Assembly (NCBI RefSeq): GCF_029023825.1
Contig: NZ_CP118957.1
Location: 1,571,794 to 1,635,793 of the forward strand
Origin: Enterococcus saccharolyticus subsp. saccharolyticus
GTDB taxonomy: Bacteria; Bacillota; Bacilli; Lactobacillales; Enterococcaceae
Direction: 5' to 3'
DNA length: 64,000 bases
Under the pieces are notes generated by a model. It was not told the origin of the DNA. It did no database searches and saw nothing but the letters and a program-made list of their open reading frames with translations. The first letter of the stretch is position 1. Each line of letters begins with the position of its first letter. Both the position numbers and the translations under genes were made by a program. Below, piece by piece: positions 128 through 14,750 of the stretch.

Positions 128-157
128 ACGTTCAGGACAAGATATTCAACGTTTGGG
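128..157 (+). promoter_or_regulatory. Two 9-bp direct repeats ACGTTCAGG (128-136) and ACGTTTGGG (149-157) separated by 12 bp; putative LytTR-type response-regulator binding site. An extended -10 TGgTATATA at 186-194 follows with no good -35.
   Basis: Read directly from the sequence. The same repeat, spacing and distance to the extended -10 recur at 2425-2491. Confidence 0.55.
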
Positions 158-221
158 CTATAAATGGTTTCTAGGGTTTATTTTGTGGTATATATTATTC
201 ATTAGTTCAAGGAGGTTTTAT

Positions 222-713
222 ATGAAAAAATTATTATTGTTATTTGCTTTTACTACTTTCACTGTTTTTGGTGTGCTATCTGAGGTAAATGCAGAAGAAC
301 TATCTGTAGATTTAAACAGCAGTTATGCTTCTACAGATATAAAAAATGATGAAGGTGAAATTATTGGTCAATTGGTAGTTTCTGAAGAAATTCCATCTAC
401 GAGTTTTTCTACCAGAAGTTATATTGATCAAGCATTGTCAAATAAAACATTTGACGTTAAGTTTATTGGTGTAACAGCAAATTTTGGATACAAAGTAACT
501 GTAAAGAACAAAAAAATTACAAATGCTTACGGGGCTTGGTCAAACGGTATTATTTGGAGTACTGACTTAGGAAAACCTTATTTTACCTCAACTACATCAG
601 GCGTAAAAGGTAAAACCAGTTTCGGTATCAGCGATTTTAGTTTCAATACAACAGTTAGGCTCAAAGGAAATATTGTTGACAATCGACTAAAAACATACCT
701 TTCATTTTCATAA
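222..713 (+). CDS. Secreted protein of unknown function, 163 aa, with a Sec-type signal peptide (MKKLLLLFAFTTFTVFGVLSEVNA).
   Basis: ATG at 222 preceded by a strong RBS AAGGAGG (210-215). The track ORF begins at an upstream TTG (153) that lacks an RBS. N-terminal hydrophobic signal with an AEE cleavage-like site. Confidence 0.7.
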   Translation: MKKLLLLFAFTTFTVFGVLSEVNAEELSVDLNSSYASTDIKNDEGEIIGQLVVSEEIPSTSFSTRSYIDQALSNKTFDVKFIGVTANFGYKVTVKNKKITNAYGAWSNGIIWSTDLGKPYFTSTTSGVKGKTSFGISDFSFNTTVRLKGNIVDNRLKTYLSFS

Positions 714-734: not shown

Positions 735-902
735 ATGATTTATGCTTACATTACAGGGCTGATTATAATTCTTATTCTAGTCTTCGTATCATTTAATTTA
801 AAACAGAAACATCAAAATAAAGGATTCACAGTGCTATTTTATCTAGTTTTAGTTGTCTTGGTAGCCTATTTGTTACCATCAGTTTCTTATCTTTTTCTAT
901 AA
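735..902 (+). CDS. Small hydrophobic protein, 55 aa, two predicted TM helices, co-transcribed with 222..713.
   Basis: ATG at 735 after GGTGGTG, 21 bp downstream of the preceding stop. Sequence MIYAYITGLIIILILVFVSF...VLFYLVLVVLVAYLL is strongly hydrophobic. A terminator follows immediately. Confidence 0.45.
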   Translation: MIYAYITGLIIILILVFVSFNLKQKHQNKGFTVLFYLVLVVLVAYLLPSVSYLFL

Positions 903-911
903 TATAAACAA

Positions 912-946
912 CCTCCACGCCTTTATCATCAGCGTGGGGGTTTTTA
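912..946. terminator. Bidirectional rho-independent terminator: hairpin CCTCCACGC...GCGTGGGGG followed by a T-run.
   Basis: GC-rich inverted repeat, then TTTTT on the plus strand and an A-run before it for the minus strand. Sits between the plus-strand operon and the convergent SH3 gene. Confidence 0.7.
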
Positions 947-973
947 TAAGCAAAACACAACACGGTTATTTTA

Positions 974-2424: not shown

Positions 2425-2454
2425 ACGTTCAGGCATAAATTTACGACGTTTACG
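2425..2454 (+). promoter_or_regulatory. Second copy of the direct-repeat site: ACGTTCAGG (2425-2433), 12 bp, ACGTTTACG (2446-2454). An extended -10 TGgTAATCT at 2483-2491 follows.
   Basis: Left repeat identical to site 1, same 12-bp spacer, and the same 31-bp gap between the right repeat and the -10 hexamer. Confidence 0.55.
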
Positions 2455-2601
2455 ACATAAATAGTTTTAAGACTCCAAAACATGGTAATCTGAACAGTAA
2501 GATACCTTTATTAAGCATTCGATAACATTTACACTATACCTAACCTCTCACATTTCGAAAAATACTCCACTATTATCCTAATAAAGAAACGAGGTTTTTA
2601 A

Positions 2602-3444
2602 ATGAAAAAAATTTTTATAAGTAGTTTGTTAATAACTTTTGCTACCGTTTTCTTGGTCGGTTGCGATAAAAACGAAACAGTGAACAACTCCGCCACAAAT
2701 TCAGCCATTTCTGTAAGTGATCATTCAAGTGAAGAATCAACTACTACAGAATCAATTACAGCAACAACCATGAATTTGGAAAACAAGACGATCGAAACAA
2801 CTATTCAAAAATCAACTGTACAATCAACCGTTGCATCTTCAACGATTGAACCAACACTTGCTGATTTTGTCGGTGGCTGGGGACTTCCTCAAACAGATAT
2901 ATTATTTTTCATAGCGAATGACGGATCGTTTGCTACTGCCACTGCTGGTCCTAATGATACTCCCCCATCTTATCCGAATTATTCATTTCGTTTTAATACA
3001 GATGGCAAACCAGTAATGACCATGACAAGCGACACTGGAACAACAGATTTTATTTTAGAACCCGATGGTACGTTAACTATCGATGGTAACACTTATATTT
3101 ATCTAGGAAATTATACTCGTGAGGGATTTACAGCTGCCAAAATTGCCGAATACCAAGCAGCTGAACAAGAACATGCAGCTACTGCAGACTCCACTTCTTT
3201 TAATGAAGTGCCGATGGATTCGTTTGGTGCAATTGAGTCAGCCAAAAGCTATCTGGCTGGTGGTGGTAACACGACGCAATTTGATAATTACACATTTACT
3301 GATACTAATGGTTTAATGACTGATGAATCTGGTAGATCCTATTATTCCATTATGATACGTCAAAATGGTGGAAATGGGATGAAATCGATGGCTATTGGTA
3401 TCATCAACGTTTATACTGATAACGGTGAATGTGTTTGGCAATAA
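2602..3444 (+). CDS. Lipoprotein of unknown function, 280 aa, with a Ser/Thr-rich linker and a C-terminal globular domain.
   Basis: ATG with RBS GAGGT. Signal peptide ending in lipobox FLVGC (Cys21). Low-complexity T/S-rich segment from about residue 30 to 95. Confidence 0.75.
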   Translation: MKKIFISSLLITFATVFLVGCDKNETVNNSATNSAISVSDHSSEESTTTESITATTMNLENKTIETTIQKSTVQSTVASSTIEPTLADFVGGWGLPQTDILFFIANDGSFATATAGPNDTPPSYPNYSFRFNTDGKPVMTMTSDTGTTDFILEPDGTLTIDGNTYIYLGNYTREGFTAAKIAEYQAAEQEHAATADSTSFNEVPMDSFGAIESAKSYLAGGGNTTQFDNYTFTDTNGLMTDESGRSYYSIMIRQNGGNGMKSMAIGIINVYTDNGECVWQ

Positions 3445-3447
3445 ACT

Positions 3448-3489
3448 AAAACAAGACTTCCAATGTAAACTGGAAGTCTTGTTTTTTTC
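3448..3489 (+). terminator. Rho-independent terminator of the lipoprotein gene: ACAAGACTTCCA...TGGAAGTCTTGT followed by TTTTTTT.
   Basis: Perfect 12-bp stem followed by a T-run. Confidence 0.8.
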
Positions 3490-3491
3490 CA

Positions 3492-3526
3492 TAAAAAAGT
3501 CAACTACCTAAATGATAGTTGACTAG
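3492..3526 (-). terminator. Rho-independent terminator of the csp gene: GTCAACTA...TAGTTGAC followed by a T-run on the minus strand.
   Basis: Inverted repeat at 3500-3523 with an A-run on the plus side (T-run on minus). Confidence 0.7.
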
Positions 3527-3530
3527 AAAA

Positions 3531-3731
3531 TTAACCTTTAACGATGTTTGTTGCTTGAGGTCCACGTTGACCTTCTTCAATATCAAAAGTCACTGCTTGA
3601 CCTTCTTCTAAAGTTTTGAAACCTTCACCTTGGATAGCTGAGAAGTGTGCAAACACATCTGTTCCATTTTCTGCTGTGATAAAGCCAAAACCTTTATCTG
3701 AGTTAAACCATTTTACTGTACCGTTATTCAT
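3531..3731 (-). CDS. csp: Cold-shock protein, CspA family, 66 aa.
   Basis: [18 protein letters not shown]...VFAHFSAIQ carries the RNP1/RNP2 motifs of the cold-shock domain. Confidence 0.95.
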
Positions 3732-3910
3732 AACGTACCTCCAAATTACACATCATGTGTGTTTATTTTGTAATAACGAGTGAAGTGCAAATAGAAGTGC
3801 GTATCATTTTTTATAAAGATAAACATATTATAGTTACATATCAAAAAGTATTACTTACATAGTATAACATGGATATTTAGCGAATGCAACTTAAATCGCT
3901 TTACTTCTTC

Positions 3911-4561
3911 TTATTTTTTCTTTGAATTCGCACGATACTGACTTCTTGTCATTTTAACGGACGGATTAGAATTAAACTTACGAACAGCTGGATCAGAATC
4001 TTTGCGTGCTTGATAGGCAGCAGGTTCTGTATCAAATAACATGTATTCTTCTTTCTCCATCGATTCCATCAATTCTTCTTCTGAAACAGCCGAAGTGTGT
4101 TCATCAGGTATGATGGATGCAGGAATGTATTTAGGAACAAACGGAGACTTTTCAACTGGTTCTTTCGTAATCGTTGGTCGTGTTGTTTCTGTACGCTTCT
4201 CTGTCACTTGATACGTACTATGCGCCACTGTATCACCAAATAAACGTTTTTTCCCTGTTGGTGTAACTTCTGGTTGATAGCGTTTATTATAGTCTGGGAG
4301 ATTTTTACGATGCTTGCTTAGTTCTTCTTTTTGGCGAATACTTTGCCCTGCTTTCCCCTGACTCACACGAGGTGAGCGACGGAGAGCACGTTCTGCCGTA
4401 CTTTCAACAGGTTGTGGATGCTTGGCAGCTTCAGTAATAATCCAATTATCATCACTTTTAAAAGTTGGACGATTATTTTTAGGTTGTAATTTCACACCTG
4501 CATCGTCTGCATAGGCTGGAAAACGAGCATGCTTCCGTTTAATTTCTTCATATTTGACCAT
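3911..4561 (-). CDS. Hypothetical protein, about 216 aa, highly basic and charged, predicted intrinsically disordered.
   Basis: Start chosen at MVKYEE, 9 nt after AAGGA; the track's GTG at 4603 lacks an RBS. Low-complexity K/R/E/P/T-rich composition with no recognisable domain. Confidence 0.45.
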   Translation of the reverse strand: MVKYEEIKRKHARFPAYADDAGVKLQPKNNRPTFKSDDNWIITEAAKHPQPVESTAERALRRSPRVSQGKAGQSIRQKEELSKHRKNLPDYNKRYQPEVTPTGKKRLFGDTVAHSTYQVTEKRTETTRPTITKEPVEKSPFVPKYIPASIIPDEHTSAVSEEELMESMEKEEYMLFDTEPAAYQARKDSDPAVRKFNSNPSVKMTRSQYRANSKKK

Positions 4562-4675: not shown

Positions 4676-6547
4676 TTATACAAGTTGTAATTGTTCTTGA
4701 TTCATATGGAATCGTTCCATTTTTTCTTTTTTCTCTTTACTGCTGATAAAAATATAACTATTTTCAGCAACTGCACGGCCCGTTAACCGACGACGAACTT
4801 CTTGAATTAGTGGTGTTTCCTCTGCAATAAATGTCAATTCTTCTACAACACGTTTTGGATAGTTTGTTGGATTCATTAACGCTGCCACATACTCGTCACC
4901 ATCTCTTCTTAAAATCCCAAATAACTCGTCCGTGAAAAAGAAACTTAAATCACCATGAACCAATACCTCATAATCGTTACGACGTTCTACCCATTTACGA
5001 CAACTGTCATAAATTTCACGATTCATTTGATTCCATGGGAAAAATTTACGATTTTCAGGATCTTTTGCACCAGTCAATCCGGCTTCATCCCCATAATAAA
5101 TACAAGGTACACCAGGAGACAAGAACATAAATCCAAAGGCTAAATCTAATTTTTTCGTATGATTGCCAACCATTGTTAAAATACGCTCTGTGTCATGCGT
5201 ACCAATGTTATTTAGATTGTTATAAAAAATATCACGTGGATAATTTTCATATAATCGTGTCAATGATTTAGCAATTTGTTCTGGTGAGCTTTTTTCATTA
5301 AGCAAATCAATGGCACTATCACGTAATGGATAGTTCATGACACCTTGTAAATGATCTCCTAGAATATATTCTCGGCGAACATCGTAAGATACTTTATTCG
5401 AAGCATCTTCCCAAACTTCACCAATCAACACTCGGTCTTCATAATTGTTTAAATTTTTTCGAATTCCGGCAATAAATTCATCGGGCAATTCATCGGCAAC
5501 ATCTAAACGCCAACCATCTACACCAAATTGATTCCACTTTGTTAAGACACTATTTTCTTCTCCAAAAATGAACTTTTGGAATTCTGGATCATGTTTATTG
5601 ATTTCTGGTAAATCCTTAATTCCCCACCATGATTCATACTCTTGAGGATAATTGATAAAGTTAAACCAAGAGAAATACTCACTGTGACGATTTTGGAACG
5701 CACCTATATTTGTTCCATATGAACCACTTGCATTAAAATAACGACTATTTTGTCCGACATGACTAAATACACCATCTAAGATAAGATGCATGTCATTTAT
5801 GTGTAAAGCATCGATTAATTCTTTAAAATCTTCTTCTGTACCTAAAACAGGGTCAATTTTAAAGTAATCAGATGTATCGTAGCGATGGTTGCTACAAGCT
5901 TCAAAGATAGGATTGAGGTAGATACCTGTAACACCTAACTCTTTTAAGTACGGAATTTTTTTTATGATTCCTTGAAGATTGCCTCCAAAAAAATCCCAAC
6001 GTAAAATATCGCCATTTGAACCTTTAACATATAAAGGTTCGTCTTCTTCTGTTGCATAAATAAATGTATTGGGTTTTGGTGAATTCACTTTTTTATCTGG
6101 ATTCCCGTTGTAAAAACGGTCTGGAAAAATTTGATAAAAAACACCATTACGATACCAATCAGGTGTACATTCTGCCGATTGGTAACAAGTAATTTGAAAA
6201 TCCCAAATAGTTGCAGGACGATCATATAAACGACCTTCTCCACCTTGTTCACTTGCGCCATAATATTCAATAAATACCTGATCATTGACTTTTGTATGCA
6301 CTTCAAAATGATAAAAGTAAAGTCCTTTTCCTTGATTGAAAAAGTACTCATACGAATATAGACCTTCTTCTTGTTTTTCCATAAAAATACGTTGCTCTGG
6401 TTGATGATCCTTGTGCATGACCAAATACACTTGTAAAATGTCCTCGGCGATTACCTCAATAGATAATCGCGCGAGTCCGTTTTCTTTTACTGCTCCAAAA
6501 GGGTGTTTATAGTAACTTTGCCAAGGATTAAAACGAATTAAAGACAT
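4676..6547 (-). CDS. GH13 alpha-amylase-family enzyme (neopullulanase / maltogenic amylase / cyclomaltodextrinase-like), last gene of the glg operon.
   Basis: GH13 catalytic signatures: DGWRLDVADE (nucleophile region), EVWED and NIGTHD-like motifs. Start placed at MSLIRF (6547) with RBS GAGGG, overlapping the glgP end by 20 nt. The alternative start is 6610. Confidence 0.8.
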   Translation of the reverse strand: MSLIRFNPWQSYYKHPFGAVKENGLARLSIEVIAEDILQVYLVMHKDHQPEQRIFMEKQEEGLYSYEYFFNQGKGLYFYHFEVHTKVNDQVFIEYYGASEQGGEGRLYDRPATIWDFQITCYQSAECTPDWYRNGVFYQIFPDRFYNGNPDKKVNSPKPNTFIYATEEDEPLYVKGSNGDILRWDFFGGNLQGIIKKIPYLKELGVTGIYLNPIFEACSNHRYDTSDYFKIDPVLGTEEDFKELIDALHINDMHLILDGVFSHVGQNSRYFNASGSYGTNIGAFQNRHSEYFSWFNFINYPQEYESWWGIKDLPEINKHDPEFQKFIFGEENSVLTKWNQFGVDGWRLDVADELPDEFIAGIRKNLNNYEDRVLIGEVWEDASNKVSYDVRREYILGDHLQGVMNYPLRDSAIDLLNEKSSPEQIAKSLTRLYENYPRDIFYNNLNNIGTHDTERILTMVGNHTKKLDLAFGFMFLSPGVPCIYYGDEAGLTGAKDPENRKFFPWNQMNREIYDSCRKWVERRNDYEVLVHGDLSFFFTDELFGILRRDGDEYVAALMNPTNYPKRVVEELTFIAEETPLIQEVRRRLTGRAVAENSYIFISSKEKKEKMERFHMNQEQLQLV

Positions 6548-8972
6548 TGCTGGTTCCCTCTTTTTCTGTATGGGCAAAAATTGGTTCAATTTGCCAAATA
6601 TCTTCTGCATATAACCTTACCGTATCATCAGAAGAAAAACGGCCGGCATTTGCAATATTTACTAGACTGATTTTACGCCATAACGCTTGATCTTTGTACG
6701 TCGTATCAATGCGTTCTTGCGCTCGACAATAGTCATCAAAATCGCGTAATAAGAAGTATTCATCATTGTAACGAATTAATGAGTCATAAATCTCACGACC
6801 TTCATAACCGATGTTTGGAATCGTACCATCCACAAAAGAATCTACCACTCGTCTAATGACTGGGTTTTCATCATAAATTTGTTTAGAATAATACTCATGA
6901 TTTTCATAATAAGCATATACTTCTTCTTCAGTTAAACCAAAGATACAAATATTCTCATCACCAACAGCATCACGAATTTCAACGTTCGCACCATCTAATG
7001 TCGCCACTGTAACCGCACCATTTAACATTAATTTCATATTACTTGTACCAGATGCTTCTTTTGATGCTAATGAGATTTGCTCACTCACATCTGCAGCTGG
7101 AATAATACGTTCTGCTAAGGATACATTGTAGTTTGGTAAGAAGACAATTTTAATTTTATCTTGAATTGATGCATCATTGTTAATCATATTCGCCACTTCA
7201 TTAATTGTTTTAATGATTGCTTTGGCATACGTATAACTTGGCGCTGCTTTGGCACCAAAAATGAAGACACGTGGGTGAATATCCAACTCAGGATTATCTT
7301 TCAAGTCAAAGTATAACTTAAGAATATGCATCAAGTTTAGCAATTGACGTTTATACGCATGAAGACGTTTAATTTGTACGTCAAAAATTGCATTTGGAGA
7401 CACAGTGATTCCTGTTGTTTCTTGAATATATTCTGCTAACTCTTCTTTCTTCTGGTGTTTTGCTTGTGCTAATTTCTCTAACACTTTTTCATCATTCTGA
7501 TAGTTCATCAATAATTTCAAATCAGAAGAGTCTTTACGCCATGTTTGACCAATCGATTCATCTAACACATTAGATAAAGGTTCATTGGCTAATTGTGACC
7601 AACGGCGTTGTGCAATTCCATTTGTTTTATTGTTGAAACGATCTGGATAAATAACATAGAAGTCATGTAAAACGACTGATTTCAATAAGTCTGAATGGAG
7701 TTTCGCTACACCATTTGTACTATGACTACCAATAATTGATAAATTAGCCATGTGTACTTGATCACCTTGAATGATACGTGTACGTTGAATTAAATCTTCT
7801 GGATGAATACCACGCATTGATTCAACATAACGACGATCAATTTCTTCAATGATTTGATACATACGCGGAACGATTTGTTTCATTAAATAAACTGGCCATT
7901 TTTCTAGCGCCTCTGCTAAAATCGTATGGTTTGTATAGCTCATTACTTTTACAGTGATATCCCAAGCTTGTTCCCAAGTCACATCGTTTTCATCGATTAA
8001 AATACGCATTAATTCAGGAATACACAGTGCTGGATGCGTATCATTAATATGAATCGCTACTTTTTCACTTAATGCAGACCAAGGTTTATTTAATTTTTGG
8101 AAATAACGAACAATACTTTGCACACCTGCTGAAACAAAGAAGTATTCTTGAATCAAACGAGTCATACGACCTCTTTCATTTGAATCATCAGGATATAATA
8201 CTGCTGTTAAATCTTCATAAACACGTCGTTCTTCGATACTCTTATATTTGCCCTCTTCTGAAGCTGGAATTTCGACACTCCATAAACGCATTGTATTAAC
8301 AATTCCGTTTTGGTAGCCTACCATCCCTGTATCATAAGGAACAGCACGTAAGATAATTTCGTTTTCTGCAACTGGTTTTAATTGTCCATTTTCATTTTCT
8401 TTTAAATAGACATCTCCAGCAAAATGCACGTTCACCGCTTTACTTGGACGACGAATTTCCCAGACGTTTCCGTTATTTAACCACTCATCAGGTAATTCTA
8501 CTTGATGTCCGTCTACAAATTGTTGTTTAAATAAACCGTAATCGTAACGGATACCGTTTCCGTTTCCAGGCAATCCGCTTGAAGCAATAGAATCCATAAA
8601 GCATGATGCTAAACGTCCTAAACCACCGTTACCAAGCGCCATATCTTTTTCAACATCTGCTAAATCGTCTAAGTCTACATCTAAGTCTGATAATGTATCA
8701 CGTACTAAATCCAATAGGCCTAAATTTAACAAATTGCTTTTTAGCATTTTCCCTGGTAAAAACTCAATGGAGAAATAGTAAGATTGTTTTTGTTCTTCTT
8801 TTAAATAGTTTTTCCATGTTTCACGCCAGTTATCATTATAAATAGCTTTTACTAAACTACCTAATGTAAAAAACAATTCATCTGCTGAAGCATCTTCTAA
8901 TTCTACTGCGTAACTTTCTCTTACGCGCTGTCGTAACTCTTCTTTTAAATTTTCCTTCGTTAAAATGGTCAT
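6528..8972 (-). CDS. glgP: Glycogen/maltodextrin phosphorylase (GT35), 814 aa.
   Basis: Length and motifs of the alpha-glucan phosphorylase family, including the pyridoxal-phosphate lysine region (EASGTSNMK). Confidence 0.95.
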   Translation of the reverse strand: MTILTKENLKEELRQRVRESYAVELEDASADELFFTLGSLVKAIYNDNWRETWKNYLKEEQKQSYYFSIEFLPGKMLKSNLLNLGLLDLVRDTLSDLDVDLDDLADVEKDMALGNGGLGRLASCFMDSIASSGLPGNGNGIRYDYGLFKQQFVDGHQVELPDEWLNNGNVWEIRRPSKAVNVHFAGDVYLKENENGQLKPVAENEIILRAVPYDTGMVGYQNGIVNTMRLWSVEIPASEEGKYKSIEERRVYEDLTAVLYPDDSNERGRMTRLIQEYFFVSAGVQSIVRYFQKLNKPWSALSEKVAIHINDTHPALCIPELMRILIDENDVTWEQAWDITVKVMSYTNHTILAEALEKWPVYLMKQIVPRMYQIIEEIDRRYVESMRGIHPEDLIQRTRIIQGDQVHMANLSIIGSHSTNGVAKLHSDLLKSVVLHDFYVIYPDRFNNKTNGIAQRRWSQLANEPLSNVLDESIGQTWRKDSSDLKLLMNYQNDEKVLEKLAQAKHQKKEELAEYIQETTGITVSPNAIFDVQIKRLHAYKRQLLNLMHILKLYFDLKDNPELDIHPRVFIFGAKAAPSYTYAKAIIKTINEVANMINNDASIQDKIKIVFLPNYNVSLAERIIPAADVSEQISLASKEASGTSNMKLMLNGAVTVATLDGANVEIRDAVGDENICIFGLTEEEVYAYYENHEYYSKQIYDENPVIRRVVDSFVDGTIPNIGYEGREIYDSLIRYNDEYFLLRDFDDYCRAQERIDTTYKDQALWRKISLVNIANAGRFSSDDTVRLYAEDIWQIEPIFAHTEKEGTSNVFNSF

Positions 8973-9053
8973 TACCCCCTTTTTTTAAAAACAGGCTGAA
9001 ACATTGAATAATTCAACGCCCCAGTCTGCTTGTTTCTAAAACTTTTTATTTAA

Positions 9054-10484
9054 TTACACTATACTTTCATATAAAGCTAGGTAGCCTTCACAGCTAGTTT
9101 CCCAACTGAAATCTTTAGACATCGCATTGCGACGTAATTTATCCCAAGCTTCTGGAGAAGAATAGTATAAATCAATAGCTTTTTTCAAACATTGCATCAA
9201 ATTATATGATGTAAAGTCTTGGAATCCAAATCCTGTGCCAGTACCTTCTACTGGATTAAATGGTTCAACAGTGTCACGCAAACCACCAATTTCATGAACA
9301 ACTGGCAATGTGCCGTAACGCATTGAAATCATTTGTGATAGCCCACAAGGTTCAAATGCAGATGGCATCAAGAAGATATCTGCACCAGCATACATTTTTT
9401 GAGCAAGTTGAACATCAAACGAAATGCTAACTGAACATTTTTCAGGATATCTTTCAGCAATCGATTGGAAACGATTTTCAAATACTGGATCACCGGTTCC
9501 TAATAAAACAAACTGAACATCAAATTGTAATAAGTTTTCTAACTCGTCTAATACTAGATGGAAGCCTTTTTGATACGTTAAGCGACTAACAACAGCAATC
9601 ACTGGTACTTCCTTAATTGGACGTAAGCCCATTAAACGTTGTAAGTCTTCTTTATTTGCTTCTTTACCTGATAAATCGTCTACAGAATACGGGCTAACTA
9701 GTGCTGGATCTGTTTCCGGATTGTTGATGTCATAATCAATTCCATTGACAATTCCACTTAATTTGCCACTTTCCATACGTAAAATTACATCTAGTCCAGA
9801 ACCAAATTCTGGCGTTTTAATTTCATTCGCATACGAAGGACTTACAGTATTTACACGATCAGCGTATAAAATACCAGCTTTCATAAAGTTCAAAGCATCA
9901 CCCATACGGATTGTGCCATCATCATAACGCTCTCTACCCATGCCGAATAAATCTGGTAACACATTCCCACTATATTGCCCTTGGAATTCAATGTTATGAA
10001 TCGTTAACACTGTACGAATATTACTATACGCTTCAATCCAGTTATATTTTTCTTTTAGTAAGAACGGAATCATTGCTGTATGATAGTCATTAACATGAAG
10101 AACATCTGGAATAAAATCAATTTTTTCCATTAATTCAATCACTGCCATTTGGAAAAAGGCAAAGCGTTCCCCATCATCATAATAGCCGTATAAACTTTCG
10201 CGATCGAAATAATACAAGCTATCAATAAAGTAATAGGTTACTCCGTTTAATTCCAAACGTTTCACACCACAATACTGCTTACGCCATCCAACAGTTACTG
10301 TAAAGTTTAAAACGTCTTCACATTGCTCTTTATATTTAGGAGGCATTTTAGTGAAATAAGGTAAAACAACAACCGTTTCAGTTTCTTTTTTCGTTAATTC
10401 CTTTGGTAGCGCACCTGCTACGTCTCCTAAACCGCCTGTTTTGAAAAATGGCGCACATTCAGATGCTGCAAATAGAAGTTTCAT
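9054..10484 (-). CDS. glgA: Glycogen synthase (ADP-glucose dependent, GT5), 476 aa.
   Basis: N-terminal KTGGLGDV motif and overall GlgA architecture. Confidence 0.95.
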
Positions 10485-10487
10485 TGT

Positions 10488-11630
10488 CTAACCTCCAATA
10501 ATATCTGCTGTTACATGCGTTCCTTTTTTAACAACGACAGGTTTTTCTGGCGTTCCAACAATTTTCACGCCTTCTTCTACGACAATATTTTTATCTAAAA
10601 TTGCGTAGCTAACTTCCGCATTCGCTTTGATTGTATTGCTTGGGAAAATTAGTGAACCACTAACTTTGGCACCTTCAGCAATATCACTCCCACGACCAAT
10701 AATTGAATCTTCTACGTTTCCTTCAATCATACAACCCGTCGAAAATTGACTGTTATTAACAACTGATGTTTCAGAATAATAAGTTGGTACTTCATTTTTC
10801 AATTTTGTATATACTTTTTGACTTGAATACAATAATGAATTGAATTTTTGCGTATCCAACATATCCATATTTGCTTTATAGTAAGAAGGAATGTCGTAAA
10901 TATTGTTTAGGTAACCAGTATACTCATATGCATACGTATCTTTTGAAATACGCTCACGTAAGAAACTCTCTACGTTTCCTAAAACATTTTCAGATTGTTT
11001 TTCACGTAAAATTTCAATTAATTTTTCTGTTTTAATGATAAAAATATCTGTACATAAGTTTGCTACATCTTGTACTTCTGCATTTTTCACTAAAGCTTTT
11101 TTTTCAATTAAGTTATCTTCACCTAATTTGATAATGATATCTTCTTTATATAACAAATCTTTAGGTACACGTTTATACACCACTGTCATTTCATTGCCAT
11201 GTGCTTGATGAATGTGTAACAATGCACGTAAATCAATGTTCACTAAGATTTTGCTACCCATGTAAACAGCATATTCAGATTTTGATTTTTTCAAATAATC
11301 GATAACTAAATCATAGTAGCTGCTATTGTTATCGGCGCGACGGATAAAGTCTTGGTAGATATGAATGAAGAAACGATTTTGAATACCGTCTAAACTCCAT
11401 TCTTTCCCGCCACCAATATGGTCAAATACAGATTGCGTTTCACCTTCATTAAATACCATGAACAATGATTTAATATTCGCATTTGCAATACTTGATAAAT
11501 TAAAATCAAGCAAGCGGTACTTTCCATCAAATGGTAAAGTAGATAGTGGACGATTCGCAGTTAACGGTAATAAATCATCATAACGATGCAAATTTCCAAC
11601 AAGCGCACACATTTTATTAGTCCTCATCAA
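10488..11630 (-). CDS. glgD: Glucose-1-phosphate adenylyltransferase regulatory subunit GlgD-like, 380 aa.
   Basis: Paralog of GlgC with a degenerate N-terminal nucleotide-binding motif, positioned between glgC and glgA as in the Firmicute glgBCDAP operon. Its start overlaps the glgC end. Confidence 0.8.
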
Positions 11631-12759
11631 CAGTCACTCCAATCACTTCAGAATAGCCAACCACAGCAATTTCTTCTGTTCCATCGATTACTGCATTATC
11701 TCCAATAATCGCATCTTCCCCAATAATTGCTTTATGGATAGATACATTTTTACCAATCGTTGCACCAGACATGATAACACTGTCTGTAATTTTCGCACCT
11801 TCTTTGACTTGTACGTCATCTGATAAGACACTATGATCAACATCGCCGGCAATATAACAACCGTCAGAAATCAATGAATTTTTTGCTGACCCGGTCTCAG
11901 TGACAAAGTGTGGTGGCGAAATAGGATTTTTTGAATAAATACGCCATGCTTTATCACGAATGTTCAATTCCATATCTGGACGTAAGAATTCCATATTTGC
12001 TTCCCATAACGAATCGATAGTACCTACGTCTTTCCAATAACCATCAAAACGATACGCGACAACTGTTTCGCCGCTATCTAAGTAAGCAGGAATAACATGT
12101 TTTCCGAAGTCATTCATTGAACTATCTTTTGCATAACTCGATGTTAAAATACTTCTTAAACGCCCCCAATTGAAAATGTAAATCCCCATTGATGCAAGGT
12201 TGTTCTTTGGCTCTTCTGGTTTTTCATCAAATTCAATAATACGATTATTATCATCCGTATTCATAATACCGAAACGAGAAGCTTCTTTCATTGGTACTTC
12301 GATAACTGCAACAGATAAAGAAGCATTGTTACGTTTATGGTTTTCAAGCATTTCTTCATAATCCATTTTATAGATATGGTCTCCAGATAAGACTAAAACA
12401 TATTGTGGATCTAATTGATCGATATAAGAAATATTTTGATAAATCGCATGTGCTGTTCCTTCAAACCATTTACTACCTTCTGAACTTGAGTAAGGTTGTA
12501 AAATAGTTGCGCCAGCATTAATACCATCTAACCCCCAACTTGCACCATTTCCAATGTGACTGTTTAACGCAAGTGGTTGATATTGTGTTACTACCCCTAC
12601 GTTATTAATTCCTGAGTTTGCACAGTTACTTAAAGTAAAATCGATAATACGATATCTTCCTCCAAAAGGAACTGCGGGTTTAGCCATATTTTTGGTTAAT
12701 TTGCCAAGTCGCGTACCTTGCCCTCCCGCAAGAATCATGGCTACCATTTCTGTTTTCAT
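11617..12759 (-). CDS. glgC: Glucose-1-phosphate adenylyltransferase (ADP-glucose pyrophosphorylase), 380 aa.
   Basis: AGGQGTRL nucleotidyltransferase motif and a left-handed beta-helix C-terminus. Confidence 0.95.
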
Positions 12760-14750
12760 TTTTTCGGTGAAGAATCCACCTTGCCCCCTTTCAACTTACT
12801 TGCTTGTATTTCTTTTTTTGTTTCTTCTGTGGTTACTTTTGTGGCTTTTCTTACTTTTTTCTGCACTCGTACATTAATATCTTTTGGACGAATGATTAAA
12901 GCGCCTAATGATGGTAAAACTGTTTGAATTTGATAATCAAATTTCTTAAATGATTGCTCGATTGTTTGTACATCGCTATTATGTTTTGTCCACGTGCCGC
13001 CAAATTCCTCCATTTCTGTATTAAGTATTTCTTGATACGTACCTGGATAAGGAACACCTATTGTAAAATCATGTCGTTCCACTGGTGCAAGATTTAAAAC
13101 GACAATCAAGAAATCTTTTTTCATTTTGCCTTTGCGAATAAACGAAAGCACGGTATCGTTGAGATTATCAGCATCAATAATCTCAATTGTTTCGCGACTA
13201 TCCTCTAATTCCCATAAGGCAGGCTCATTTTCATAGAATTGATTCAATGTACTCGTAAAGTGTTGCATTTTGAGGTTCATCTCATCGTCTAAGTTGCCCC
13301 ATTCCAGTTGTTCGTCATATTTCCATTCAAGAAATTGACCAAACTCACTTCCCATAAAGAGTAATTTTTTTCCTGGATGAGTCATCATATACGTATACAT
13401 ATTACGCAAATGCGCAAATTGTTTGTATCGATCGCCCCACATTTTATGCATCAAACTTTTCTTTCCATGAACAACTTCATCGTGAGAAAAAGCCAATATA
13501 TAGTTTTCATTCATCATATACATAAATGAGAATGTCAATAAACGGAAGTTATCTTTTCGGAACAATGGATCCATTTCGTAAAAACGTAAGACATCATTCA
13601 TCCAGCCCATGTTCCACTTGTAATCAAATCCTAATGAACCATTTTCAATTAGCCCAGTAATTTTTGTCTCTGAGCTACTTTCTTCAGCCATCATGATTGT
13701 TGCTGGATGCGCCAATTTAATAACGGCATTTAATTTTTGTAAGAAATAAAATCCTTCAAAATTCCGATTGCCACCTTCATGGTTCGGTGTCCATGGACCA
13801 TCATCATAGTCCAAATACAACATACTTGAAACTGCATCAACACGGATACCATCAATATGGTACATTTCAAGCCAAAATAGCGCACTTGAAATTAAGAAAC
13901 TTTGGACTTGTGGTTTTCCTAAGTCAAAACAAATAGTTCCCCAACGATTATTTTTTGCTCGATTTGGATCCTCATATTCAAATGTTGGTGTCCCATCATA
14001 ATAGGGTAATGTATCATCATTGATACAAAAATGGCCTGGCACCCAATCGACGAATATACCTATATTATTCAGGTGACATTCTTCAACAAAATCCTGAAAT
14101 TCTTTTGGTGTCCCATAATATGAAGACAAAGCAAAATAACCGGTCAGCTGGTAGCCCCATGACATACCTAATGGATGCTCCATTAAAGGCATAAATTCAA
14201 TGTGGGTATATCCCATTTTTTTCACATAAGGAATGAGTTCGTCTTTTAAGTCAGCAAACGAATACGGTGTCCCATCTGGATGTTGTTTCCATGAACTTGC
14301 ATGAACTTCATAGATGTTTAATGGTCGTTTAAACGTATTGCGTCGTTTTTGTCGCCCACGCCACAAACCATCTTTCCATTTTTTAGTTGGAACCGTATGC
14401 AAAAGCGCAGCCATACCAGGACGTTCTTCAAATCGAATGGCAAATGGATCAATTTTCATGATTTCTCGCCCATTCGCTTGACGAACTTTAAATTTGTATT
14501 TTTCGCCTTCTTGAGGAAGTGCTGTTTTTACTTCCCAAATCCCTGATACTTCGCGTATTTCCATGGGAAGCGAATCATCCCATTCGTTAAAATCACCAAC
14601 TAACCATACTTTTTGCGCATTTGGTGCCCATACACGAAAAATATAGTCGTCTCCTTCTTTATGCACGCCCAATAAATGTTGTGCGTAAAAATTCTCTCCG
14701 GTTAAAAATCTTTGTTCAGCTTCTAAAAACTTTTTGTCTTTCACACTCAT
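12756..14750 (-). CDS. glgB: 1,4-alpha-glucan branching enzyme (GH13_9), 664 aa.
   Basis: GH13 branching-enzyme motifs and length. 4-nt overlap with the glgC start. RBS AGGAG upstream of the ATG at 14750. Confidence 0.95.

Follow-up and report, generated by a model that had tools for sequence, protein, structure and literature searches.

Two predicted AgrA-type LytTR promoters ahead of secreted-protein genes in Enterococcus saccharolyticus

Two sites of identical geometry, each ahead of a gene encoding a signal peptide, are found within a 64,000-nucleotide stretch of DNA from Enterococcus saccharolyticus subsp. saccharolyticus (the window, 64 kb, in what follows). At both sites a pair of 9-bp direct repeats precedes an extended -10 element, and on the basis of sequence we predict that both are probably activator-dependent promoters of the LytTR class, specifically of the AgrA type. 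The same box recurs beside AgrA-like and agrB genes in other genomes, which supports the LytTR reading and narrows it to the AgrA type. Regulator binding and activation, the positions at which transcription starts, the presence of a regulator in E. saccharolyticus and the signal that it responds to are inferred.

Architecture of the two predicted promoters, their genes and their genomic setting

The two transcription units, both of which are bounded by terminators, contain the following features.

128..136, + strand: distal half-site (repeat 1) of promoter 1, ACGTTCAGG, identical in site 2 and in the Tetragenococcus/Enterococcus boxes
137..148, + strand: 12-nt spacer, ACAAGATATTCA, read from the sequence
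149..157, + strand: proximal half-site (repeat 2), ACGTTTGGG, centred about -48 from the predicted start
160..170, + strand: conserved ATAAATGGTTT element, 3 nt past repeat 2, where a -35 would sit
186..194, + strand: extended -10 TGgTATATA, predicted transcription start near 201
209-215, + strand: ribosome-binding site AAGGAGG, ahead of the 163-aa gene
222..713, + strand: gene for a 163-aa secreted DUF5626 protein (PF18540, E 1.3e-30; signal peptide ends VNA/EE)
735..902, + strand: gene for a 55-aa two-TM protein, second in the operon (weak YesK-like match, below cut-off)
903..948, + strand: intrinsic terminator of unit 1 (-20.7 kcal/mol, z -8.0), then a T run
2425..2454, + strand: second operator, ACGTTCAGG-N12-ACGTTTACG, from the motif search (matrix 41.8 bits)
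2483..2491, + strand: extended -10 TGgTAATCT of promoter 2, predicted start near 2498
2602..3444, + strand: gene for a 280-aa DUF4950 lipoprotein (PF16308, E 3.5e-24; lipobox LVGC)
3448..3492, + strand: intrinsic terminator of unit 2 (-21.9 kcal/mol, z -5.1)

An earlier note on this DNA had described promoter 1 as a pair of 9-bp repeats with a 12-bp spacer and an extended -10, and these read as described at 128-136, 149-157 and 186-194; the repeats are 21 bp apart, start to start, and an A precedes repeat 1 to give AACGTTCAG. The absence of a recognisable -35 also holds, in that a consensus scan called no sigma-70 -35/-10 pair at promoter 1, and the position expected for a 17-18 nt spacer reads GGTTTC/TGGTTT, with 0-2/6 matches. 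The distance of 31 bp given for the extended -10 is correct for the hexamer TATATA (189-194) and incorrect for the TG, which follows repeat 2 after 28 nt (158-185). This hexamer lacks the usual final T, a drawback for an AgrA-type assignment of promoter 1, and the alternative TATATT (191-196) has no in-register TG. The note had also proposed a motif search to define the regulon, and scanning the window in this way uncovered the second target, a gene for a secreted (lipo)protein, whose promoter has the same 28 nt between repeat 2 and TG. Both sites carry an ATAAAT-GTTT element 3 nt past repeat 2 (2457-2467 in site 2), and the ATAAATGGTTT element of promoter 1 stands in the same register at site 2 and in the AAaaTG.T segment of the cross-genome consensus described below. 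The proteins encoded in the window are identical to those of ATCC 43076. The same locus is present in JXLD01000007 and CP180195.1, and both sites are unchanged across six independent assemblies.

In the mechanism that we propose, the half-sites (consensus ACGTTCAgG ... ACGTTtagG), arranged head-to-tail two helical turns apart, would position a phosphorylated LytTR response regulator, as a dimer, along a single face of the helix, centred about -69 and -48. With no -35 box available, RNA polymerase would need the bound dimer in order to use the extended -10. Promoter 1 would then give rise to a bicistronic mRNA of about 750 nt, encoding the secreted DUF5626 protein and the 55-aa membrane protein, and promoter 2 to a monocistronic mRNA for the DUF4950 lipoprotein, the 5' UTR of this second mRNA being about 104 nt long and unstructured.

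The DUF5626 protein has no sequence match in the PDB, and its AlphaFold model is poor (pLDDT 59), the best fold match of that model being the uncharacterised Listeria protein lmo2686; Pfam finds no LytTR domain in either the DUF5626 or the 55-aa protein. No box is present at DUF5626 homologues in four other loci or at the DUF4950 homologue of Candidatus Enterococcus willemsii, and the regulon is therefore not conserved by gene family, its wiring being specific to E. saccharolyticus. The DUF5626 genes of other enterococci (loci L114-L118) adjoin an EF0163-family gene and a gene for a 62-63-aa membrane protein. Since the copies in L115 and L116 sit inside Tcp-type conjugation gene clusters, the DUF5626 gene and its small TM partner may form a mobile cassette.

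The two sites lie in a small island. The gene for tRNA-Leu(GAG), together with about 320 bp upstream of it, is duplicated 1.8 kb apart with 76-93% identity by segment, one copy lying at 1231-1501 of the window and the other just upstream of the window, at 9197-9516 of the adjoining sequence L001. The DUF5626 cassette is placed between these two copies, which suggests an insertion or duplication at the tRNA locus. Also in L001, at 9643-9697 (window about -137 to -83), the proximal half of promoter 1, repeat 2 through -10, recurs as a 55-nt copy at 84% identity; this copy retains a single half-site, GCGTTCAGG, has a six-codon ORF and then a terminator downstream of it, and looks like a decayed duplicate of promoter 1. 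On the minus strand, an 80-aa stand-alone SH3_5 fragment (974-1216; other strains have 102 aa) and a GNAT acetyltransferase broken into ORFs of 94 and 54 aa (1703-2148) are signs of gene decay in the island, and another strain has a 63-bp deletion in this area of the SH3_5 and GNAT fragments. About 2.2 kb upstream of the window (L001 6801-7932) lies a gene for a 275-aa HTH-TPR regulator of the RNPP/Rgg type with a divergent 59-aa ORF; it belongs to another class of regulators that sense peptides. Adjoining the island on its downstream side, a glycogen metabolism cluster (4676-14750, minus strand) encodes an alpha-amylase family protein, glycogen phosphorylase, GlgA, GlgC/D-type nucleotidyl transferases and a probable branching enzyme.

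Recurrence of the box in other genomes and comparison with known systems

To place the two sites in the context of other genomes, we scanned one genome per species (185,579 species) with the pattern ACGTTYRNG-N12-ACGTTYNNG-N28-TGNTA. The scan returned 110 sites at 107 loci, of which 72 carry the full TGnTAnnnT and are nearly all from Firmicutes; the other 38 resemble chance hits, mostly in the coding DNA of GC-rich organisms. An AgrA-like protein is encoded in the same 8-kb chunk at 25 of the 72 promoter-like sites, versus 3 of the 38 non-promoter-like hits, and an AgrB-like gene is found in the chunk of 15 of the 72, where it mostly starts 24-38 nt past the -10. The queries were S. aureus AgrA and AgrB; 20 of the AgrA-like ORFs match this AgrA at E<1e-20 (best 7.6e-63), and the remaining ones give weaker matches or are cut at a chunk edge. 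Pfam analysis of the neighbours of the box reveals AgrB, HATPase_c_5 (the GHKL kinase domain typical of AgrC) and Response_reg plus LytTR. In Planococcus maitriensis (L048) a complete agrB-(D)-C-A operon begins with the box, and at this locus and many clostridial ones agrB/agrD are found beside the kinase and the regulator. The motif and AgrA/AgrB genes co-occur across classes of Firmicutes.

Several genomes contain more than one site, including Velocimicrobium (10), Lachnoclostridium UBA5725 (at least 6), Ca. Enterococcus willemsii (4) and a Tetragenococcus (3). The consensus drawn across genomes reaches past the search pattern and reads TtACGTTcA.GAcg.aAttt..aACGTTcAtGAc.AAaaTG.T ... TaTG.TAtaAT. 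No further E. saccharolyticus sites turned up in the genome scan, and when metagenomes were scanned with a version of the box specific to the species, the only hits were two unrelated contigs.

By definition, a LytTR operator consists of two 9-bp direct repeats that are separated by 12 bp and immediately precede a promoter (PMC2766830, PMC2714321, PMC6193735), with a tolerance on the gap of 12 (+/-1) bp (PMC2766830, PMC2714321, PMC4064291). Direct repeats of about 9 bp with this gap are present at 128-157 and at 2425-2454, and in silico they lie just upstream of a promoter predicted to be weak, with an extended -10, no -35 and a predicted start. The general LytTR half-site consensus of Nikolskaya and Galperin 2002 is reportedly [TA][AC][CA]GTTN[AG][TG]; it is fitted 9/9 by both half-sites of site 1, AACGTTCAG (127-135) and AACGTTTGG (148-156), and 8/9 and 7/9 by GACGTTCAG and GACGTTTAC of site 2. 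The assignment to the LytTR class made in the earlier note is thus well founded, in that the architecture fits the definition and the motif recurs by AgrA-like genes or agrB in dozens of Firmicute genomes.

The closest parallels are with AgrA. At agr P2/P3 of S. aureus and agr P2 of Listeria and clostridia, a LytTR dimer binds two 9-bp half-sites (PMC4227749), and AgrA-dependent promoters, like the window sites, combine direct 9-bp half-sites and a 12-13-bp spacer with a downstream promoter of defective -35/-10 geometry (PMC4227749). Elsewhere, the motif and geometry found here occur by AgrA-like regulators and upstream of agrB. The window sites differ in their targets, which are two secreted proteins as opposed to agrBDCA or RNAIII in agr systems, with no agr genes near the sites, and in the half-site itself, which is ACGTTCAgG here and ACAGTTAAG for staphylococcal AgrA.

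The plantaricin operators of Lactobacillus plantarum, bound by PlnC/PlnD, also place 9-bp repeats, separated by a 12-bp spacer, immediately ahead of the promoter, and their consensus, TACGTTAAT, has the ACGTT core in common with the window sites (PMC2714321). The 3' half of the PlnC/PlnD repeat is AAT, in contrast to CAGG here, and the regulators associated with the box are AgrA-like with AgrB neighbours, not Pln-type. Bacteriocin, immunity and transporter genes are lacking here; no bacteriocin-type genes are found in the neighbourhood, and the locus does not qualify as a class II bacteriocin regulon (Pln/Spp/Cbn type). The HdrRM and BrsRM systems of Streptococcus mutans likewise use direct repeats, with a 12-bp gap, that precede an extended -10 (PMC6193735); these are autoregulatory systems of receiver-less LytTR proteins with a membrane inhibitor, whereas the downstream genes here encode no LytTR domain. 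The resemblance that the earlier note had drawn to AgrA, PlnC/D, ComE and FsrA sites is therefore to be divided: that to the AgrA type, in its non-staphylococcal Firmicute form, and to PlnC/D, through the ACGTT core, stands, and that to ComE and FsrA is loose. A literature search on the ACGTTCA-type AgrA box, LytTR or agr in E. saccharolyticus yielded only the PlnC/D consensus and the general LytTR rules.

Enterococcaceae boxes and the search for a cognate regulator

Agreement with the window sites extends past the repeats in the boxes of Ca. E. willemsii, a Tetragenococcus sp. and two metagenomic enterococcal contigs. The spacer of site 1, ACAAGATATTCA, is identical at 11/12 positions to ACAAGATATTGA in a Tetragenococcus box (L028), the window spacer CATAAATTTACG has a counterpart in CATGAATTTACG of an enterococcal contig, and the AAATGGTTT element is common to the window sites and the Enterococcaceae boxes. 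The -10 lies exactly 31 nt past repeat 2 in 14 of 16 Enterococcaceae boxes, and TAnnnT is found at 31 nt in 5 of the 6 for which the -10 had played no part in selection.

In E. willemsii and Tetragenococcus these boxes cluster around genes for an AgrC-like kinase and an AgrA-like regulator. Around this pair, in E. willemsii, Tetragenococcus and E. avium, are boxes whose match to the window sites includes the spacer and the element past repeat 2. The pair differs from agr in that no agrB or agrD adjoins it in any of the three; it is linked instead to menA, ndh, lrgAB-lytST and cydCD. The peptide-pheromone input that the earlier note had predicted for the operon is therefore not supported by these closest systems. 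The box targets in these relatives are mostly small membrane or secreted proteins, and include a beta-lactamase-fold hydrolase beside dlt, a MacB/FtsX transporter, an NERD/HRDC protein and a Guanidine-I riboswitch operon.

Two boxes lie in one E. willemsii locus (L033). At 2938-3913, an AgrA-type box promoter is followed by the Guanidine-I riboswitch (3112-3198, 73.5 bits), past which lie an SfLAP-family gene and then two SMR (Gdx-type) genes; such an arrangement would place an operon gated by a riboswitch behind a promoter activated by a LytTR regulator. At 2704-2860, by the AgrC/AgrA-like operon, a second box has downstream of it only a 30-codon ORF (MNLRMLITHFSTQVIANTYECSNSIYSFEK) with no clear ribosome-binding site and no Pfam match, and the region could specify a small RNA or an unrecognised peptide gene. 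LytT was considered as the reader of the box and rejected, because the lrgA promoter beside lytST in E. willemsii has no such box.

No LytTR gene is present in the window or its 10-kb flanks (about 94 kb); these flanks contain the RNPP regulator at one end and LiaFSR at the other. The best 120 relatives of the E. willemsii AgrA-like regulator (at least about 46% identity) include no E. saccharolyticus protein, and the best 120 relatives of MenA, the prenyltransferase whose gene flanks the pair, include no E. saccharolyticus orthologue from a menA-linked neighbourhood. The regulator of Tetragenococcus is 56% identical to that of E. willemsii; the box-linked regulators are mostly 31-40% identical to it, and an E. 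saccharolyticus regulator below 46% would therefore escape the list of the best 120, so that a missing match in that list is not proof of absence.

Competing explanations and implications

A resemblance arising by chance in AT-rich intergenic DNA has in its favour that bare repeats are common. Each strand of the window has 421 instances of a 7/9 repeat with a 21-bp period (6.6 per kb at 35% GC), and 12 of these, counting both strands, also carry TGNTA at +28; the bare repeat observation is thus not beyond chance. The specific motif does exceed chance: ACGTTYNNG-N12-ACGTTNNNG is seen twice in the window, where 0.12 occurrences would be expected. When the window is scored with a 77-position matrix built from 28 AgrA- or AgrB-linked sites of other genomes, site 1 reaches 44.6 bits, site 2 41.8 bits and the third-best of about 128,000 window positions -10.5 bits, a gap of more than 50 bits. 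When only those positions left unconstrained by the search pattern are scored, the two sites agree with the matrix at 7.9 and 5.3 bits, in the top 0.01-0.03% of window positions, as compared with a median of -45.7 and a maximum of -5.3 for the non-promoter-like hits in other genomes. With the -10 at the same distance in both sites as well, we give chance almost no credence. Little more is accorded to a reading of the repeats by a regulator of another kind, be it the RNPP/Rgg-type HTH-TPR protein 2.2 kb upstream, an OmpR-type winged-helix protein or an ECF sigma factor (GAAC...CGT), which we regard as very unlikely. An RNPP-type gene with a small adjacent ORF is indeed nearby, and site 1 contains TGAAC ... 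CGT. RNPP and other HTH regulators, however, bind inverted repeats, an OmpR-type site would repeat every 10-11 bp and not 21, and the co-occurrence of the motif with AgrA/AgrB genes across Firmicute classes and the boxless lrgA promoter by lytST also count against a different reader. An ECF-sigma promoter was rejected on its wrong spacing, the gap from GAAC to CGT being 20 nt and not 16-17, and since GAAC is missing from site 2 and from the cross-genome consensus. A cre/CcpA site was likewise rejected, TGAACGTTCA being a 10-bp palindrome as opposed to the 14-bp cre.

The alternative that carries the most weight accepts the AgrA-type descent of both operators and holds that they are orphans or relics, their cognate regulator missing, either lost or never present where cassettes were transferred in, and the genes silent or weakly expressed through the extended -10 by itself. 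Neither a close AgrA-like regulator nor the menA-linked locus appears for E. saccharolyticus among the best 120 relatives in each search, and the genome scan added no further sites; the DUF5626 genes elsewhere travel on conjugative elements. The position of the cassette between duplicated tRNA-Leu genes, amid gene fragments and a decayed promoter half-copy, keeps this scenario alive. Against it, the ACGTT core is perfect in both repeats of both sites with the exact spacing kept, the sites are identical in all six assemblies, and a regulator under 46% identity would have escaped the list, as most of the box-linked ones would. We judge orphan operators to be unlikely, though well short of negligible, and retain activator-dependent AgrA-type promoters as the probable reading of both sites.

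A broader scheme can be put forward tentatively, as one possibility. The Enterococcaceae boxes may belong to an uncharacterised regulon in which an AgrC/AgrA-like pair, its own agrBD either lost or never present, senses a foreign peptide or a cue linked to the envelope or respiration, and controls a shifting set of small secreted and membrane targets; E. saccharolyticus would either read its boxes by a divergent paralogue or carry orphan operators from mobile cassettes.

The sites are of an expected kind and leave the current understanding of LytTR regulators unchallenged. In an Enterococcus that has received little study, they offer the seed of a regulon, namely two predicted promoters for which an exact operator, terminators and predicted starts can be given. 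Their motif is the local form of an architecture conserved across Bacilli and Clostridia, ACGTTCAnGAC-N10-ACGTTCAnGAC-AAAATGGT ... TGnTAtaAT, and this conserved extended box may help to predict AgrA-type regulons in uncultured gut Firmicutes.
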